Source of the DNA: Candidatus Latescibacterota bacterium
GTDB lineage: Bacteria; Latescibacterota; UBA2968; GCA-2709665
DNA length: 64,000 nt
Reading direction: 5' to 3'
Assembly: GCA_963667175.2 (NCBI GenBank)
Contig: CAXXXF010000015.1
Coordinates: 576,001 to 640,000, forward strand
Position numbers and translations under genes: made by a program
The notes under the pieces: generated by a model
The model's database searches: none
Seen by the model: only the letters and a program-made list of their open reading frames with translations
What the model was told of the DNA's origin: nothing
Shown here: piece by piece, positions 1,976 through 59,454 of the stretch
Layout: every line of letters starts with the position of its first letter
How positions within the stretch are numbered: the stretch's first letter is position 1

Positions 1976-2186
1976 CCGGGGGGAGAGGGGGTGAAAAGCG
2001 GAGACCGCGAAGGGATCACAGTTCCCCCTTCCCCCCGGGAAGGGGGAAAGGGGGTAGGTCGGTGGGACGGTGAGGGGTAAAGGCAGTTGTCAGTTAAATT
2101 CGGTTGGCGAAGGGTACACGTGATGTCATCGGTCGTTGTCTGCGTCGCGATGTGGATTAACCAGAAGGGACGCGTCGAGGGCAGGA

Positions 2187-2219
2187 CCTGCCTGCAGCGC
2201 AGTACGCTGCGCAGGCAGG
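2187..2219 (-). mobile_element. CCTGCCTG/CAGGCAGG mini-hairpin, 33 nt
   Basis: CCTGCCTG-CAGCG-CAGTA-CGCTG-CG-CAGGCAGG splits the REP-like GAGGGCAGGA|TGCCCTCGCTCCC with no duplication. Confidence 0.75.
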
Positions 2220-2315
2220 TGCCCTCGCTCCCAGGGAGACGTCTTCCTTCTTCCTTTTTCTTTCTTCGTTCTTCCTTCATCTTTTTCCTTCTTCCTTTTT
2301 TTGAAAGGAGTCGAC

Positions 2316-26439: not shown

Positions 26440-27950
26440 AGCGTTTCTTTGACGCGGCTTCGCTCAGAACGAATGGGCGCCCGCCCAAACTGTCATGCTA
26501 AGAAATCCGTTGTGAGGGTGGGGCCTGCCTCGACGTCGCTCACAAAAACAGGCCGGCCGATCTCCAAACGTGTCATCCTGAGGAGGCCGCCCTGTCTGCC
26601 AGAGATTCATCGGCAGGCAGGCCGACGAAGGATCTACTGCAGCATCGCTCGATACCCGACCGTCTTTTTTCATTCGCCGCGGGCTGACAGGCGGCACGTT
26701 TGCGCCTACATGGCCAGGCGGCGCAAGCGCGTGTGATGATGCAACCGCCCAGACTGTCATGTTTAGAATCCGTAGTGAAGGCGGGGCGGACATTCCTGTC
26801 TGCCCACGGCAATGGCATTCTGTCGGCATGGACGCAGATTGACGAGGCCGCCAGGCCAACAATGCCTCCGCGCATATGGGCCGGTGAAGGCTTGCGCTGC
26901 ATGTCAACCCGAATAGACGGGAGATTCTTCGCTCCGCTCAGAATGACATGTCTTGCAATAACGCTTGCCGAGACGTCTCCGTCACACCCTCGCCCATCAT
27001 GTCATCCTGAGGAAGCCGTCCTGCCTGCTGGCGGTTCACCGGCAGGCTGGCTGACGAAGGATCTACTGCGGCATCGCTTGATACCCGAGCGTCTTCTGTC
27101 ATTCGCCGTGACGTGGAAGGCGGCACGTCTGCGCCTACACGGCCAGGCGGAGCAAACGCGTGTGATAATGCACCCGCCCAGACTGTCATGTTTAGAATTC
27201 CGATGTGAGGGTGGGGCAGACATTCCTGTCTGCCCAAGTCAATGTCATTCTGTCGGCATGGACGTAGACTGAGGAAACCGCCAATGAAACGAAGCGTCCG
27301 CGCATATGGGCCGGTGAAGGCTTGCGCTGCATGTCAACCCGAATAGACGGGAGATTCTTCGCTGCGCTCAGAATGACATGTCTTGCAATGGATATGAGCG
27401 AAATGTTTCGGTCATACGTTTGCCAGGTCCATCACCCGCTCGGCCTGTGCCCCTCCCTGAGCCTGCGGTTCCTGAGCCGTTCCCTGAGCCTGTCGAAGGG
27501 CCGGCGAAGGGATTGCGAACGGTTTATGGGCTGCCTGAATGCGGGCATTTCGAAAAGCTCAATGACCACTTTTTGATAGGCCACTTCGACAAGCTCAGCG
27601 CTGGCAGAACGGGCAATGACCACGTTTCGACAGGGGCTTTCGGCTCCGCTCAGAATGACTGTTTGACTGACCTCCGACTGCGAGACGTTTCCGTCATACG
27701 TTCGCCCAAGCATGTCATCCTGAGGAAGCCGCCTTGCCTGCCAGCGGTTCATCGGCAGGCTGGCTGACGAAGGATCTACTGCGGCATCGCTTGATACCCG
27801 AGCGTCTTCTGTCATTCGCCGTGACGTGGAAGGCGGCACGTCTGCGCCTGCACGGCCAGGCGGAGCAAACGCGTGTGATAATGCACCCGCCCAAACTATC
27901 ATGCTTAGAAATCCGGTGCGAGGGTGGGGCGGACATTCCTGTCTGCCCGC
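26440..27950. repeat. Tandem array of ~430-bp composite repeat units
   Basis: GTCATCCTGAGG at 26573, 27001 and 27714; CGCATATGGG at 26871 and 27301; GGGGCRGACATTCCTGTCTGCCC near 26783, 27213 and 27926. Confidence 0.85.
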
Positions 27951-29725
27951 TCTTACTCATACCGTAGCGCGTCGACAGGATTCGTGCACGCAGTTCTCCA
28001 AGCGCGATGACTCACAGTGGTCAACGCAATAAAAAACGCCAGAAAACCACCCATGACAAAAGGCCATACATCCAGATCAATGCGATAGGCAAAATTCCGT
28101 AACCACGCGTTCATTGCATAATATGCAACTGGCCATGCAATGAGATTTGCAAGTCCGACAAGCAGGACGAATTCTCTGGACATTAGCAGAACGACTGTGG
28201 AAACAGACGCGCCGAGGACCTTTCTGATGCCGATCTCCTTGACGCGCCGTTGCGCGCTGAATGAAGCCAGGCCAAACAGCCCAAGACTTGCGACAAGTAT
28301 GGCGAGGAGTGAGAACAGACCAAACAGCCTGCCAATCTGTTGTTCTTCACGATGCAGTTTCTCGTAATCATCGTCCAGGAAGAAATAATCGAACGGTGTA
28401 TTCGGCGCAATATCACCCCACTGCGCCTTTAGAAAACTGAGTGTACCAGCGATATCATCCGATCGAATCCTGATAACGAAATACTCAAACCACGTTTCCT
28501 GCGTCGTGATAATCAGAGGTTCGATTTCATGATGCAAAGACTGATAGTGAAAATCCTTCACAACGCCGACAACCTTTCCTCTGTATTCTACCTTTATTTC
28601 GTTGCCCTGTGGCCATATTTTCTCCAAATCCTTACCTACACACGAACTCCAACCGAATTTTCGCATGGCAGCTTCATTGAGGATAAGTTCGCCACGGTCA
28701 TCACGCGGATTTTTTTCCACAAAGCCTCTGCCTTCTACGAGTTCAAGCCCAAGTGTGGAGACGAATTCGTTGTCAACCACCAATTTGTTCATCCCAAAGC
28801 CATCCTCAGATCCGCCATCACGAGGAGATCGAAAAAGACCGGCGGGAAATGGTCGACCAGGCAGACTTGAAGTCGTCGAAGTGCTCAATACATCTGCATA
28901 CTCCGACAATCTCGATTTATATCGCTTTGACGCCTCAATGCCGGGATACGGCAATACTACGACCTGTTCCTTATTGAAACCCAGTTCCTTGTTTCTGATG
29001 TAATCCGACTGATCGTAAACAACAATCGTTCCGACAATTAGAATTACCGAAATGGCAAATTGAAACACGACAAGAGTTTTACGTGAACTGGATTTCTGCA
29101 ACCCAATCTTCACTGTGCTCTTGAAGACCTCTGCTGGCCGAAGAGCTGAGAGAATCAAGGCAGGATAAATCCCGGAGAGTAAGCCTGAAAACATCGCCAT
29201 CCCTATCAGGACAGACAGCACATCCAAACCTCCCGCGTATTCCAATTCCAACTCGCGGGAGATAAGGGCGTTAAACAAAGGAAGCGAGACCTCAACAATT
29301 ACAACAGCCAAGAATGACGAAAACAACGCCAACAAGATCGATTCGCCCATAAACTGGCGGAAAAGCTGTGAGCCGTCGGCGCCTACCACTCTTCGCATAC
29401 TCACTTCTTTTGACCGCGCCGTTGACCGTGCCGTTGACAGATTCGTAAAATTGATGCAAGCCAATACCAACACAATGAAGGCAATGATCAGGAAGAGATA
29501 AACATGGCGAATATCGCCGTTGGGACTCATTTCCCACTCCAAACTGGAATTCAAATGAATGTCAGCCAGGGGTTGCAGGAAGTACTTGATGTGTAAACCT
29601 GCAGCTTTGGCTCGTTTCCCTATGGGGAATGTACCTATCTTAGTTGAAATAGAAGAGGCTCCGATGTAAATTGGATACAGTAGTCCCGAGTAGAATACTG
29701 TATCCTCATACGAAAGGAGCCTGTA

Positions 29726-31042
29726 ATGAGCAAGGTATCATCGAAGTCTCGTGAAGTCAAGTTGAACACGGAAGGTGTTGTGAGTTCCAGGGCGGTCTCC
29801 GCAGGTATGCTGGAGGATGTTGACGTCCGTGTGGCCTTGATCCAGTCGCTGATCCCTCTGGGTCTGGCCGCCGTGGAAGAAATCTTGCAGAATGAGGTCG
29901 CCGCGTTGACGGGCAAGAGATACAGTCGTAAAGCAGACAAGGCCCCGAATCGCCGGTGGGGCGTGCAACGTGGATCGGTGTATCTATCGGACCAGAAAGT
30001 GCCCGTGGCGGTACCGAGGGTGCGCGACGTGGAAGCCAATGAGGAGGTGCCTCTACAGGCGTATCGCCGCTTGCAGCGCCCCAGAGACATGGACGAAGGG
30101 TTGCTGCTTCGCGTTCTGGGCGGCCTTGCCACGCGTTCTTACGCCAGTTGCGCAGAGGCGGTACCCGAGGCGTTTGGCTTGTCTTCGTCGACGGTCTCGA
30201 AGCGGTTCATAAAGACATCAGCGGCCAAGCTGAGGCAGTTTCAAGAACGGTCGCTTGCCGGCTATGACCTGGTGGGGCTGTTTATGGATGGCAAGACCTT
30301 TGCCGATCAGCAAATGATCATCGCCCTTGGCGTGACAATCGACGGGGACAAGGTCCCGCTGGGGTTCGTGCAGGCCGCCAGTGAAAATGAGCGCGTGTGC
30401 CGGCAGTTTGTCAATTCGCTCATCGATCGCGGACTGCAGTATCACCAGGGGCTGCTGTGCCTCATCGACGGCTCGAAGGGGTTGCGGACCGCGCTGACCA
30501 AGGCCCTATCCGGATACGTCGCCATTCAACGCTGCCAGCCTGCCTGCCGAGCATCCGGCGCAGGCAGGTGGCACAAACGGGAAAACGTGATCGCCTATCT
30601 GCCCAAATCACAGCAGGATGAGGTCAGAAAGGCCCTCCACGATGCGTACGACAAGGAGACCTACAACGAAGCCAAAGCCGCGCTACAGGCCCTCAAACCC
30701 TCCCTGGCGCTGAGGAACGCATCGGCACTGAACAGCCTCGAGGAAGGGCTCGAAGAAACCCTCACCCTCCATCGGCTGGGGCTCATGCCACAGCTCAAAC
30801 AATCGTTCCGCACCACCAACTGTATCGAATCCCTCAACGCCATGGTCGCTCAGCGCACACGAAATGTAAAACGATGGAACAACTCCGATCAGCGATATCG
30901 GTGGTTGGCAGCCGCGCTGTTAGACATCGAGCCACGACTGCGGAGAATCAAAGGATACCGCTTTCTTCCTATACTCAGACTTGCCCTACAAAAACACCTC
31001 AACCTCGATCACGACGCGCAAGAGGCTTTCGCCGCCGACTAA
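29726..31042 (+). CDS. IS256-family (Mutator-like DDE) transposase with a 10-aa in-frame insertion
   Basis: VPRVR, LFMDG, LIDGSKGL, QRCQ[PACRASGAGR]WHKRENV, RTTNCIESLN. Confidence 0.92.
   Translation: MSKVSSKSREVKLNTEGVVSSRAVSAGMLEDVDVRVALIQSLIPLGLAAVEEILQNEVAALTGKRYSRKADKAPNRRWGVQRGSVYLSDQKVPVAVPRVRDVEANEEVPLQAYRRLQRPRDMDEGLLLRVLGGLATRSYASCAEAVPEAFGLSSSTVSKRFIKTSAAKLRQFQERSLAGYDLVGLFMDGKTFADQQMIIALGVTIDGDKVPLGFVQAASENERVCRQFVNSLIDRGLQYHQGLLCLIDGSKGLRTALTKALSGYVAIQRCQPACRASGAGRWHKRENVIAYLPKSQQDEVRKALHDAYDKETYNEAKAALQALKPSLALRNASALNSLEEGLEETLTLHRLGLMPQLKQSFRTTNCIESLNAMVAQRTRNVKRWNNSDQRYRWLAAALLDIEPRLRRIKGYRFLPILRLALQKHLNLDHDAQEAFAAD
30539..30568 (-). mobile_element. CCTGCCTG/CAGGCAGG mini-hairpin, 30 nt, in frame inside the transposase
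   Basis: CAG|CCTGCCTG-CCG-AGCATC-CGG-CG-CAGGCAGG|TGG. Confidence 0.85.
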
Positions 31043-31894
31043 ACGCCTCTCCCGTTTCAACTAAAAATAGTACTTGCCCTTCCCTATGTGTCTCTCGGTG
31101 AAATCAGGTAACTTCGTTTCTAACTCGTCAGCTGCACGGGCGTCTTGCAAGAGCAGATAGGTATAATAATCGTGGGCAATCCATGCCTTACTCTTAATGG
31201 GCGATGCCAGAAAATCGAACGTCATATGGGTGTTGTGGGTGTGATCCTCCAAAATACCGGTTATCTTATACGCTTCACCCTCCATGGTAAGCGTCTGCCC
31301 TATCGGATCCCGGTCGCCGAAATATTTCCACGCCATCTCTTGTGTGAGAACAATGGAATAAGGCTCCAGCAGTGCAGTTTGAGGTTCTCCTTTGCCCAGT
31401 GGAAAATCAAAGACGTGGAAAACATTCGCGTCGGTAAACAAGACATTACTTTCGTAGAAATGATCCTGCTGGTTTCGAACAAGCGTCTTTTCATCGTCTT
31501 TCGAAAAACGGACTGCATCTATCACCTCCGCATAGTCTTCGACAAGTGCAGGTCCCGTTGAAAATGGCGTCATGGCAATATGACGCATGACCCCTGCGAC
31601 TTTTGCGGTAGTAGCAAGCCGATAAATGCGGTGTGCGTTTTCATGGTGTCTGTCATAGCTCAGTTCATCCTGAACGTAGAGGAGAATGAGCATGCAGCAG
31701 GCCATGCCGATTGCAAGGCCAAGAATATTGATGGCCGAAAACGTCTTGTTCCTCATCAGGTTGCGAATGGCGACTTTCAGATAGTTCGCGACCACGTAGG
31801 GTCACCTCCTGTGTCTTCTCTGGCGCGGCTTCGCTCGGAATGAATGGGCCTTCGCCCAAACCGGCATGTTGAGAAATCCAATGCGAGGGTGGGG

Positions 31895-31963
31895 CCTGCC
31901 TGCGCGAAGCGGAGCGCCTGCCTGCCGCGGCAAGCGAAGCGGCGCAGGCAGGCGGCAGGCAGG
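31895..31963. mobile_element. Nested 33+36-nt CCTG mini-hairpin composite
   Basis: Near-identical composite to the reverse complement of 11868-11936, but in a different host (GGTGGGG|CAGACATTCC). Deletion derivatives at 20717-20763, 21188-21219 and 34569-34626. Confidence 0.8.
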
Positions 31964-34452: not shown

Positions 34453-34798
34453 CGACTGACTCCTTATGGAAAGTACCATTCACTTCAATCTGCCAAGGCT
34501 GCGCTCAGTATGAATGGGCGCCCGACCGCCAAAACAGTCATGTTGGGAAATCCGATTTGAGGGTGGGGCCTGCCTGCGCCAAGCGGAGCGCCTGCCTGCC
34601 GCGGGAAGCGAAGCGGCGCAGGCAGGCGGACATTCCTGTCTGCCCACGTCCGTGTCGTTCTGTCAATTGAAGCAGATGGACGAGGCCGCCAGGCTGCTCC
34701 CCTCCCCGCGCCGGGGAGGGGCTGGGCTGGGGGAGGGGTCGCCGTGCCCGGGACGGGCGCATTGGGCCCACGACGATCATCGATTCGATGGTACACTG

Positions 34799-58305: not shown

Positions 58306-59265
58306 TCATTGCAAATGCTTCCTTACTTCGTCCAGCAACGTCCGTTTCGCCTCGTCTATGCGCTTTTCAATCCTGCAGCCCGAGGCCCGCGTGTGCCCGC
58401 CTCCGCCAAACGCCGCCGCGACGCGGTTCACATCGACTGCGCCGCGAGAACGAAGGCTGACGCGGAACCGTCCCGGGGCCTCTTCCTTGAAAAACAACGC
58501 CGCCTGAATCCCGTCGATCGCCATCGCGTGGTCTACCACAGGATCCGGATCGCCGCCCTTGCGGTACGTTTCGTGGTCCACAACGAGTGTGCTCACTCGA
58601 GCGTCGAAATGAAGTTCCAGGGTACTTAAGGCGGCCGCCAGCGTCACCATGGTCTGGTAACTCTCCCGGGCAAACAGCGCATCGGCGATCGCCTCCGGGT
58701 TGGCGCCGAATTCCGCCAGTTCGCCGCAGACCTTTAACGCCCGTTCCGGATGGGAAACCCTGAAAAGCTTGGTATCGAACGCGATTCCCGTGTAAATCTG
58801 GGTGGCGACCGCCGGATTGATTGCCGTTCCGGCAGCCCGAAGCAGTCCATAGACCAGTTCGCTGGCGGAACTAGCCGAACGGTCCACGATGCGGACGTCG
58901 CCCTCCGGCTTGCGGAAAGCGTGATGATCGATGATCATCGTGCGTGCGTCCTCACGGAGAAGGCGCCCCACGTCGCCCACTCGTTGCGGGTCCAGCGTTG
59001 GCGTGTCCACCAATACCGCCCGGCCAAACGCCGGCGGATCCACAAGCGACCTGTACAGTTCAATATGGTTAAATCCCGGCAGAAAAGCAAATTTCGGATT
59101 CAACGTCTCATCGCTGACGACGAGTCGGCACGCCCGCTCTTTCTGGACGAGCATTTCCCTCAACGCCAGCAGGCATCCAATCCCATCCCCGTCTGCATTG
59201 ACGTGGGTTGAGACCAGATACGGTTCGTCGGGGTCGAAAAAGGACAACGCCGCGGTATAGTCCAT
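58306..59265 (-). CDS. nrnA: DHH/DHHA1 phosphoesterase (nanoRNase)
   Basis: THVNADGD, IIDHH, VSLRS, FGGGGH..ASG. Confidence 0.88.
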   Translation of the reverse strand: MDYTAALSFFDPDEPYLVSTHVNADGDGIGCLLALREMLVQKERACRLVVSDETLNPKFAFLPGFNHIELYRSLVDPPAFGRAVLVDTPTLDPQRVGDVGRLLREDARTMIIDHHAFRKPEGDVRIVDRSASSASELVYGLLRAAGTAINPAVATQIYTGIAFDTKLFRVSHPERALKVCGELAEFGANPEAIADALFARESYQTMVTLAAALSTLELHFDARVSTLVVDHETYRKGGDPDPVVDHAMAIDGIQAALFFKEEAPGRFRVSLRSRGAVDVNRVAAAFGGGGHTRASGCRIEKRIDEAKRTLLDEVRKHLQ

Positions 59266-59266
59266 A

Positions 59267-59428
59267 GCAGTCCGTTGAAAAAGTCGCTCTGCAGGCGAGG
59301 CCGAGTCATTGTGGCCGAAGACAAGGCGCGCGACCGACGCGAATCCCTGGATTCGGGGAGGGAGCGCAACGCCGTATTTCGGTCACAAGGGCCGGACGCA
59401 GACCGGATGGACTTTATCAACGGGCTGC
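59267..59428. mobile_element. MITE, 162 bp, with 19-bp imperfect terminal inverted repeats
   Basis: GCAGTCCGTTGAAAAAGTC ... GACTTTATCAACGGGCTGC, flanked by CATA on both sides; partial copies at 14744, 57240 and 62266. Confidence 0.78.
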
Positions 59429-59454
59429 CATAGTCCGGCTTCGAAACCGTCCCT

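Follow-up and report, generated by a model that had tools for sequence, protein, structure and literature searches.

An IS256-family element interrupts a permease gene

The window studied here, a 64,000-nucleotide stretch of contig C15 from a Candidatus Latescibacterota bacterium, carries an insertion sequence (IS) of the IS256 family that lies within a permease gene and whose transposase gene contains, in the middle of its conserved CxxH motif, an in-frame hairpin of 30 nucleotides (nt). The source genome (G000; 18 contigs, 5.52 Mb) was assembled from a metagenome, the assembly being 95% complete, and its closest named relatives are metagenome-assembled genomes of Candidatus Latescibacterota. 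The stretch is also present in sponge-metagenome runs, for which run contigs, not raw reads, were compared; among the 20 runs listed there was no RNA run. Sites elsewhere in the genome are given by contig (C3, C4, C7, C14, C16 and C17, or C15 beyond the window). Eight full-length copies of the IS were found in the genome: the window copy and five siblings, together forming lineage A, and two diverged copies, B and C. Homologous proteins (127 in total, from a large protein search and its clusters) carry P-numbers, P0124 being the protein of the window copy. The features of the locus, in window positions, are as follows.

27953-29554, minus strand: C-terminal (3') part of an FtsX/MacB-like ATP-binding cassette (ABC) permease, from the list of open reading frames (ORFs)
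29616-29624, no strand: left copy of the target-site duplication, TTCCCTATG, 9 bp, identical to 31080-31088
29625-31079, plus strand: insertion sequence of the IS256 family (1455 bp; 1425 bp once the hairpin is subtracted), delimited by end-to-end alignment of the eight genomic copies
29625-29649, plus strand: left inverted repeat (GGGAATGTACC...TTAGTTGAAA), matched against the right end in reverse complement
29726-31042, plus strand: transposase ORF, 438 aa (428 aa in the siblings), Pfam Transposase_mut (PF00872)
30527-30538, plus strand: codons Q-R-C-Q, first half of the split CxxH motif, read directly
30539-30568, plus strand: 30-nt palindrome resembling repetitive extragenic palindromes (REPs), translated as PACRASGAGR, missing in the five siblings, copy C and relatives
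30569-30589, plus strand: codons W-H-K-R-E-N-V, second half of the motif, where the alpha-helical insertion domain begins, invariant among homologues
30604, plus strand: sole substitution relative to the five siblings (C in the window copy, B and C; A in the five), synonymous (CCC/CCA), alignment column 1062
31055-31079, plus strand: right inverted repeat, paired with the left end
31080-31088, no strand: right copy of the target-site duplication, TTCCCTATG, a perfect match to the left copy
31080-31795, minus strand: N-terminal (5') part of the permease, from the ORF list

Members of the IS256 family have imperfect terminal inverted repeats, an 8- to 9-bp target duplication, a length of ~1.3 to 1.5 kb and a single ORF. 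The window element fits this description, with a PF00872 (Mutator/IS256-type) transposase (E value, 1e-36; residues 48 to 401), imperfect inverted repeats, a 9-bp duplication and a size of 1425/1455 bp, and other copies of the IS are likewise bordered by duplications of 8 to 9 bp. While a preliminary description of this DNA credited the element with intact inverted repeats and a perfect 9-bp target-site duplication, only the latter part holds as worded: the two copies of TTCCCTATG are indeed identical, but the inverted repeats are no more than recognizable, with matches at 27 of the first 40 positions.

In silico removal of the IS and of one repeat copy restored an open permease frame of 794 codons, and the three-level nest of permease, IS and hairpin put forward in the preliminary description is real. 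The landing of the IS is, moreover, recent or polymorphic, as had been surmised. A 976-nt contig from run X1 joins position 29615 straight to 31080, its two sides deviating by 0 and 1 letters, indicating that an uninterrupted permease allele exists in a near-identical population. The same 29615/31080 joint was found in a more diverged contig from run X6 (9 letters being shared at the joint in both contigs), and since both contigs carry the permease without the IS, the insertion is polymorphic among related populations.

A 30-nt hairpin splits the CxxH motif of the transposase

The insert (CCTGCCTGC-CGAGCATCCGGC-GCAGGCAGG) consists of 9-bp stem arms around a 12-nt loop and is placed, exactly as first described, in frame at 30539-30568, in phase 0 between codon CAG (30536-30538) and codon TGG (30569-30571). 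The ORF consequently reads ...IQRCQ-PACRASGAGR-WHKRENV..., with the C-Q-W-H motif split by 10 residues, and none of the insert's six frames contains a stop codon. The pattern CCTGCCTGC-(12 nt)-GCAGGCAGG has a single match in the window (0 expected from 100 shuffles), and, folded as single-stranded DNA, the insert reaches -10.7 kcal/mol (z score, -3.3), which none of 200 shuffles equaled. Five further stem pairs, TGCCA/TGGCA, are contributed by the flanks.

Judged by comparison with other copies and homologues, the 30 nt, one member of a dispersed hairpin family, are a derived insertion into the CxxH motif. First, the five siblings, identical to each other, lack exactly these 30 nt, and, apart from the hairpin, the window copy differs from them by one base in 1425 positions, 36 nt past the hairpin (position 30604). 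Since the siblings otherwise differ so little, the alignment also marks the hairpin difference as recent, in agreement with the preliminary description. Second, copy C (C16:146898), 5.4% diverged, has an empty site as well, so that among the eight genomic copies the window copy and B are filled, and the five siblings and C are empty. Third, relatives readable across the site are empty at all seven loci (G002 twice, G013, G014, G016, G029 and G035), and the filled junction was found in one of the 168 genomes of the phylum, where it occurs twice, both times in the source genome. An IS fragment in G016 that seemingly contained the hairpin turned out to be an empty site with a flank resembling the 3' half of the hairpin.

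The homologues tell the same story at the protein level, and the ten residues are an extra in an otherwise conserved motif, as claimed. A loop at this position, had it been routine, would have made the insert unremarkable; instead, an uninterrupted [Q/E]RC-x-WHKRENV stretch was present at 30 of 32 loci from GTDB genomes of several phyla (the motif pattern being unmatched in the other two), the ten residues were absent from all 17 aligned homologues, and CxxH was contiguous in 125 of the 127 homologous proteins, the exceptions being the window protein (P0124) and P0002. In the alignment of 18 proteins, the residues on either side (Q268, R269 and C270; W282, H283, K284, R285, E286, N287, V288 and I289) are invariant.

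Other carriers of the same insert

Copy B (C15:115393-116888, outside the window) contains the identical 30 nt at the identical position, even though it is 4.8% diverged from the window copy and has its own 8-bp target duplication. This decayed copy has a 1-nt frameshift and two more hairpins built on the same stem, of 20 nt and 19 nt (39 nt in all), at sites that are empty in every other copy. The second carrier, P0002, is an intact protein of 438 aa encoded on a 5443-nt contig of another assembly, from a different metagenome; it reads QRCQ-PACRASGAGR-WHK in a background with both B-like and C-like residues. Hairpin-free proteins exist on both sides, A-like (P0001, P0122, P0123 and P0125) as well as B/C-like (P0003, P0004, P0126 and P0127), and several variants are mosaics of one another, with P0122, for example, being A-like up to residue ~257 and C-like beyond.

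The presence of the same insert in other, diverged IS copies makes it a shared variant of the element, not a one-off hit. With the same 30-mer at the same site in a 5% divergent copy and the same residues in P0002, the proposal that the hairpin jumped in after the IS had inserted can no longer stand as the account of its origin; it becomes only one of several.

Outside of this IS, the exact 30-mer was also found in five other genomes belonging to three genera (G009, G011, G015, G016 and G019), at nine other distinct sites (10 including one on contig C4 of G000), all with unrelated flanks. A sequence target for the 30-mer was rejected because nothing was common to the flanks of the nine other sites, and no sequence target can therefore explain a second independent hit in the IS.

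The C4 occurrence, the third exact 30-mer in the genome, lies within G000:C4:188348-190096, in opposite orientation and in frame, where it is read as PACAGCSAGR; the frame is open over 583 codons, has no Pfam match and also contains a 54-nt double hairpin. Separately, in another Latescibacterota genome (OZ244960.1), two copies of the related IS, L062 and L063, have elsewhere in the transposase gene (locus positions ~2600 to 2650) a different insert of 34 nt, which forms a hairpin of its own, AACGTGTC...GACACGTT; the copies nearest to them, L060 and L061, do not have it.

A dispersed family with one stem and many loops

The source genome contains 320 members of the hairpin family under a loose pattern (at most one mismatch per arm) and 173 with a perfect stem. 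They share the stem CCTGCCTGC/GCAGGCAGG around a variable loop, the minimal unit being 19 nt, and fall into length clusters of 19, 20, 28, 30 to 33, 37 and 40 nt. Because many are nested in other repeats, 131 of the 320 (41%) have an empty, paralogous counterpart in another part of the genome. At all 18 polarized sites (distinct sites for which both filled and empty versions exist), the two versions differ by the hairpin alone, without duplicated bases. The junction was G^C at 11 of the 18, and at 16 a left-hand G or a right-hand C was present, a preference too weak to define a target.

Like REPs, the family is predominantly extragenic, being depleted in long open frames: 65 of the 320 members lie in a frame open for at least 80 codons on both sides, versus 1229 of 2000 random 30-nt intervals (a proxy, not a gene annotation). 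In-frame members were nevertheless found in hsdR, encoding a type I restriction protein (G000:C14:321321-324560), where a 21-nt member lies between HSDR_N and SWI2_SNF2, and in a fused hsdM/S gene (C17:83913-86504; 33 nt, inside the N6_Mtase match). The main host is a miniature inverted-repeat transposable element (MITE) of ~190 nt with terminal repeats TAACAGYCCGTTGAAAAAGTC and three fixed hairpin sites, which are filled (1) or empty (0) in six combinations among 58 copies (000, 22 copies; 010, 15; 011, 9; 110, 6; 111, 4; 100, 2). One MITE copy is located in the window (~59250-59450); G000:C15:635317-635417 served as the empty reference. Another host is a third repeat family, CGAGGGCA-loop-TGCCCTCG, 6 of whose 36 copies hold a CCTGCCTGC hairpin in the loop, including one in the window (2177-2240).

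Across the bacterial family to which the genome belongs, perfect-stem members are present in 16 of 22 genomes, unevenly so (173, 129, 121, 110 and 71, followed by counts of at most 31). The 19-nt unit was detected in 9 of the 168 genomes of the phylum and in none of 31 genomes of the sister family.

Close to the interrupted permease, members of the family at 31916-31960, 34590-34627 and 27736-27760 fill the short gaps between tandem permease genes, like classical intergenic REPs.

Origin of the hairpin in the window copy

As to how the hairpin came to be in the window copy, copying from one IS copy to another fits best, although we give it a probability of only about one-half. According to this reading, the hairpin would have entered the IS lineage of this sponge-associated Latescibacterota group once and would now be an allele shared by the window copy (lineage A), the decayed B copy and the intact, B/C-like P0002, with most copies lacking it; the window copy, hairpin aside one of six near-identical recent copies, would have acquired it from another hairpin-bearing copy through short-patch gene conversion or recombination. 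Four hairpin-free A-type proteins versus one with the insert speak for a gain within lineage A. Recombination among copies is supported by the mosaic variants and by the position of the lone sibling difference, just 36 nt from the hairpin, the chance of a substitution within 40 nt on either side being ~80/1425, or 6%. A maximum-likelihood tree rooted with relatives has the topology (A,(B,C)), with 76% support for B plus C.

Several points weigh against copying. A conversion tract from B would have to stop within 2 to 3 nt on the left (column 993: C in the window copy, T in B) and before column 1060 on the right (again C in the window copy and T in B), and it could not have brought the C at 30604. 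Because the markers at 3 nt before and 34 nt after the hairpin are not B-type, we rejected copy B as the sole donor. A P0002-like donor would fit, but none is present in the 95%-complete assembly, and P0002 is known here as a protein. The support for B plus C, at only 76%, would also leave room for a single gain followed by losses. Finally, at least two hairpin variants were found at 7 of the 18 polarized sites, which makes the repeated use of one site a general trait of the family.

This last trait bears on the first alternative, in which a free hairpin transposed de novo into the window copy after the IS had landed in the permease, independently hitting the position occupied in B. We regard such a fresh transposition as less likely than copying, and indeed as unlikely. 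It would be helped by a preferred target at the tip of TGCCA-G-TGGCA: the empty site is a small palindrome, with the insert sitting at its apex and lengthening the stem; members of the family also occupy the loops of the 6 CGAGGGCA...TGCCCTCG repeats mentioned above and the apex sites tgtctgcg^cgcagaca and cgtgtccg^cacgcaga; and REPs inserted into small palindromes are described for Thermomicrobium roseum in PMC3733652. The several variants at 7 of 18 sites point the same way, as do the markers flanking the hairpin, both A-type in the window copy and both B-type in B. The price, however, is that one of many loop variants must have hit the same phosphodiester twice, with the exact 30-mer making up just 3 of the 320 family members in the genome and its other copies sharing no flank, and the linked substitution 36 nt away is left unexplained.

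Less probable still is an old allele that predates the split between A and B, was kept in the window copy and was precisely excised both from copy C and from the five siblings' ancestor. The same reading, with equally slim prospects, has excision restoring the enzyme and setting off the five-copy burst, the hairpin thereby acting as a reversible off-switch. It would account for the hairpin being embedded in each lineage's own flanking markers, for the window copy retaining the ancestral C at 30604 when the five share a derived A, and for the mutual identity of the hairpin-free siblings. Nor is there a target duplication or footprint at any empty site, as precise excision predicts, and, at two hairpin sites of the MITE, all four filled/empty combinations exist (15, 9, 6 and 4 copies, with the middle site filled). 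Yet at least two precise losses are needed on the (A,(B,C)) tree, and more if P0122, P0123 and P0125 are counted. The 30 nt show 0 differences between A and B, where the synonymous divergence (dS) of 0.128 predicts ~3.8, although the exact conservation of the 30-mer across genera weakens this argument. Moreover, purifying selection on the branches that would have carried the hairpin implies that the insert must be tolerated, and with that the motive for a switch is lost.

None of these three routes shows that the IS landed first and the hairpin arrived afterward. An assembly or polishing artifact, in which the 30 nt were copied into the consensus from copy B reads, is conceivable for a metagenome-assembled genome with eight near-identical IS copies, and none of the four runs examined yielded a contig of the hairpin-bearing IS, but it is extremely improbable, as the markers on either side of the hairpin (3 nt before it and 34 nt after it) are A-type instead of B-type, an independent assembly encodes the same insert, and contigs drop rare variants, so that the silence of the run contigs says little. 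Contigs of runs X1 and X2 do contain the IS without the 30 nt, possibly just as collapsed siblings, and contig breaks near 30538/30568 in X5/X6 were too ambiguous to be used.

Effect on the transposase

The ten residues are added at a strand-to-helix junction that bears the catalytic-site Cys and His, and they probably weaken or abolish catalysis by the window copy's own protein, as structural alignment and modeling suggest. In the structure of ISCth4 transposase, of the IS256 family, the alpha-helical insertion domain begins next to the DDE site with the CxxH motif (C262/H265), and in Hermes the His touches the scissile phosphate, according to PMC7780238. HMMER aligned the QRC....H residues of chain 6xg8_A with the window protein (E value, 8e-5), the insert facing a 10-residue gap. 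AlphaFold2, given the same 17 homologues for both forms, placed a strand at residues 265 to 269 of the sibling protein, with a helix (271 to 280) starting at once thereafter. With the insert, confidence over residues 271 to 290 fell from 94/95 to 42/54, residues 274 to 286 had a predicted local distance difference test (pLDDT) score below 50, and the first helix turns were lost, with only the last turn left; this contrast is an effect on model confidence, not a measurement. The copy numbers agree with an impaired enzyme, as the five-copy burst is hairpin free and each hairpin-bearing form was seen as a single copy. The window element itself could still be mobilized in trans by an intact sibling transposase in the same cell.

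Other observations weigh against such an impairment and speak for a tolerated loop, with the 438-aa protein being an active transposase whatever the origin of the insert, a reading that we consider doubtful. The 438-codon frame is intact in two of the three hairpin-bearing sequences, in two different backgrounds, and the insert brings no stop in any frame. The branch to B shows 15 synonymous versus 5 nonsynonymous codon changes, evidence of purifying selection there, and the pairwise ratio of nonsynonymous to synonymous divergence (dN/dS) is ~0.2. In addition, the duplication around the window copy is fresh and the site is polymorphic, being empty in run X1, so that the hairpin-bearing element may itself have transposed. 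REPs in frame in apparently working genes are, furthermore, among the cases reported in PMC3733652, and hsdR and hsdM/S are examples here. Against a tolerated loop stand the rarity of the split motif, found in just 2 of 127 homologues (the window protein and P0002), its location in the active site of solved relatives, the local loss of model confidence, the single-copy status of hairpin-bearing forms compared with five copies of the hairpin-free form, and the possible mobilization of the window copy in trans by intact siblings.

Taken to its furthest extent, the material would allow the CCTGCCTGC hairpins to be seen as a self-propagating nano-element with a 19-nt minimum, inserting without duplication at hairpin tips and preferring mobile DNA, which in this IS would constitute a transferable, precisely reversible off-switch: the carrier is silenced, the allele is spread by homology and loss of the hairpin re-arms the transposase, leading to bursts like that of the five copies. 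We offer this as a long shot, with very little credence attached.

Short palindromic repeats within genes are known, but the mechanism and direction of their movement are rarely caught. The natural series described here, with one 30-mer at one codon boundary in three diverged IS copies, numerous empty ones, a set of six near-isogenic copies and a landing site that is still polymorphic, makes several questions testable: arrival by transposition versus gene conversion, precise excision, and whether a 10-residue loop in CxxH kills an IS256-type enzyme. The hairpin family is, in a wider sense, a good candidate for learning how tag-less REP-like repeats spread.

Candidate machinery for hairpin spread

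The spread of the hairpins would fit single-strand "peel and paste" of the type used by REPs and their REP-associated tyrosine transposases (RAYTs), given that they insert without a duplication, that their empty sites are clean, that their targets are related to structure and that they are patchily distributed. Two defining features of the REP/RAYT system fail here, however. First, the unit starts with CCTG and ends with CAGG, and neither a GTAG nor a CGTC tag was found in it or in the flanks of the 18 polarized sites. Second, the Y1 genes are tied to other repeats. The genome has three Y1_Tnp matches, two on C7 and one on C3, and only one of the three genes has two CCTGCCTGC-type hairpins within 1.5 kb. 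Each of the C7 paralogues (C7:59528-60130 and C7:62896-63498) contains an in-frame, perfect, GTAG-tagged palindrome, GTAGGGGCAGGTTT-N-AAACCTGCCCCTAC, read as VGAGLKPAPT, and a second GTAGGGGCAGGTTT palindrome ~56 nt upstream, the genome total being 25. The C3 gene is surrounded by 8 of the 36 copies of the CGAGGGCA-loop-TGCCCTCG family (G000:C3:192276-193933). With the Y1 genes flanked by two other REP families, no cognate enzyme was identified for the CCTGCCTGC hairpins.

Four of the five genomes richest in hairpins contain close orthologues of the C3-type Y1 gene. Such orthologues are also found in G007 and G013, where hairpins are few, and are missing from G015. These genomes are kin and not independent, and we regard this co-occurrence with hairpin-rich genomes as suggestive but imperfect. 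Y1-like segments also occur inside open frames of 1203 to 1441 codons in four relatives (G011:C2:164031-164609, G007:C1:1912806-1913378, G016:C1:3070599-3072680 and G009:C1:4547679-4548260), with 43 to 46% identity to the C3 gene, or 75% for one of the two in G016.

Comparison with known systems

REPs and REPINs, mobilized by RAYTs (Y1 HUH enzymes), are the closest counterpart. Like them, the family described here consists of short (19 to 58 nt), GC-rich palindromes in hundreds of dispersed copies, mostly outside genes, that are patchy across related genomes, produce no target duplication, enter small palindromes and occasionally occur in frame within genes; both in-frame REPs and REPs inserting into small palindromes are already covered in PMC3733652. 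The REP criterion given there, a GTAG or CGTC tetranucleotide at one end, sets them apart from our hairpins, which have no such tag and are further distinguished by a 19-nt minimal unit, by one 9-bp stem combined with many loops and by the 131 of 320 copies that lie inside other repeats also existing empty. With no duplicated bases at any of the 18 polarized sites, the hairpin itself does not qualify as a MITE either.

Rickettsia palindromic elements (RPEs) resemble the insert in being palindromic repeats that sit in frame in coding genes and are translated with the frame kept open, as holds here for the transposase ORF, hsdR and hsdM/S. RPE-1, at ~100 to 150 nt, is longer than the 30-nt insert, and the host here is a gene of a mobile element, with a catalytic motif being split instead of a surface linker. 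The closest structural counterpart of the protein, ISCth4 TnpA (PDB 6XG8/6XGW/6XGX, the structures treated in PMC7780238), belongs to the same Pfam family and aligns at QRC..H, but it is distant (E value, 8e-5) and without the insert, the ten residues facing a gap.

Nested mobile elements, finally, offer the general precedent of one selfish element interrupting another, with decayed copies gathering more, as copy B did with its three hairpins. The usual direction is the reverse, IS elements targeting REPs (work cited in PMC3733652), whereas the present case is one of a REP-like unit placed in frame in a transposase ORF and shared among diverged copies. The literature on IS256/CxxH, RPEs and REPIN/RAYT systems, in a search not aimed at Latescibacterota repeats, yielded no report of a REP lying within the catalytic motif of a transposase, and the PMC3733652 list of REP-carrying ORFs may include transposases. 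In summary, the novelty lies in the host gene and in the position of the insert, the catalytic CxxH motif of a transposase, together with the sharing of the insert among diverged IS copies and a tag-less hairpin family built on one stem and many loops.

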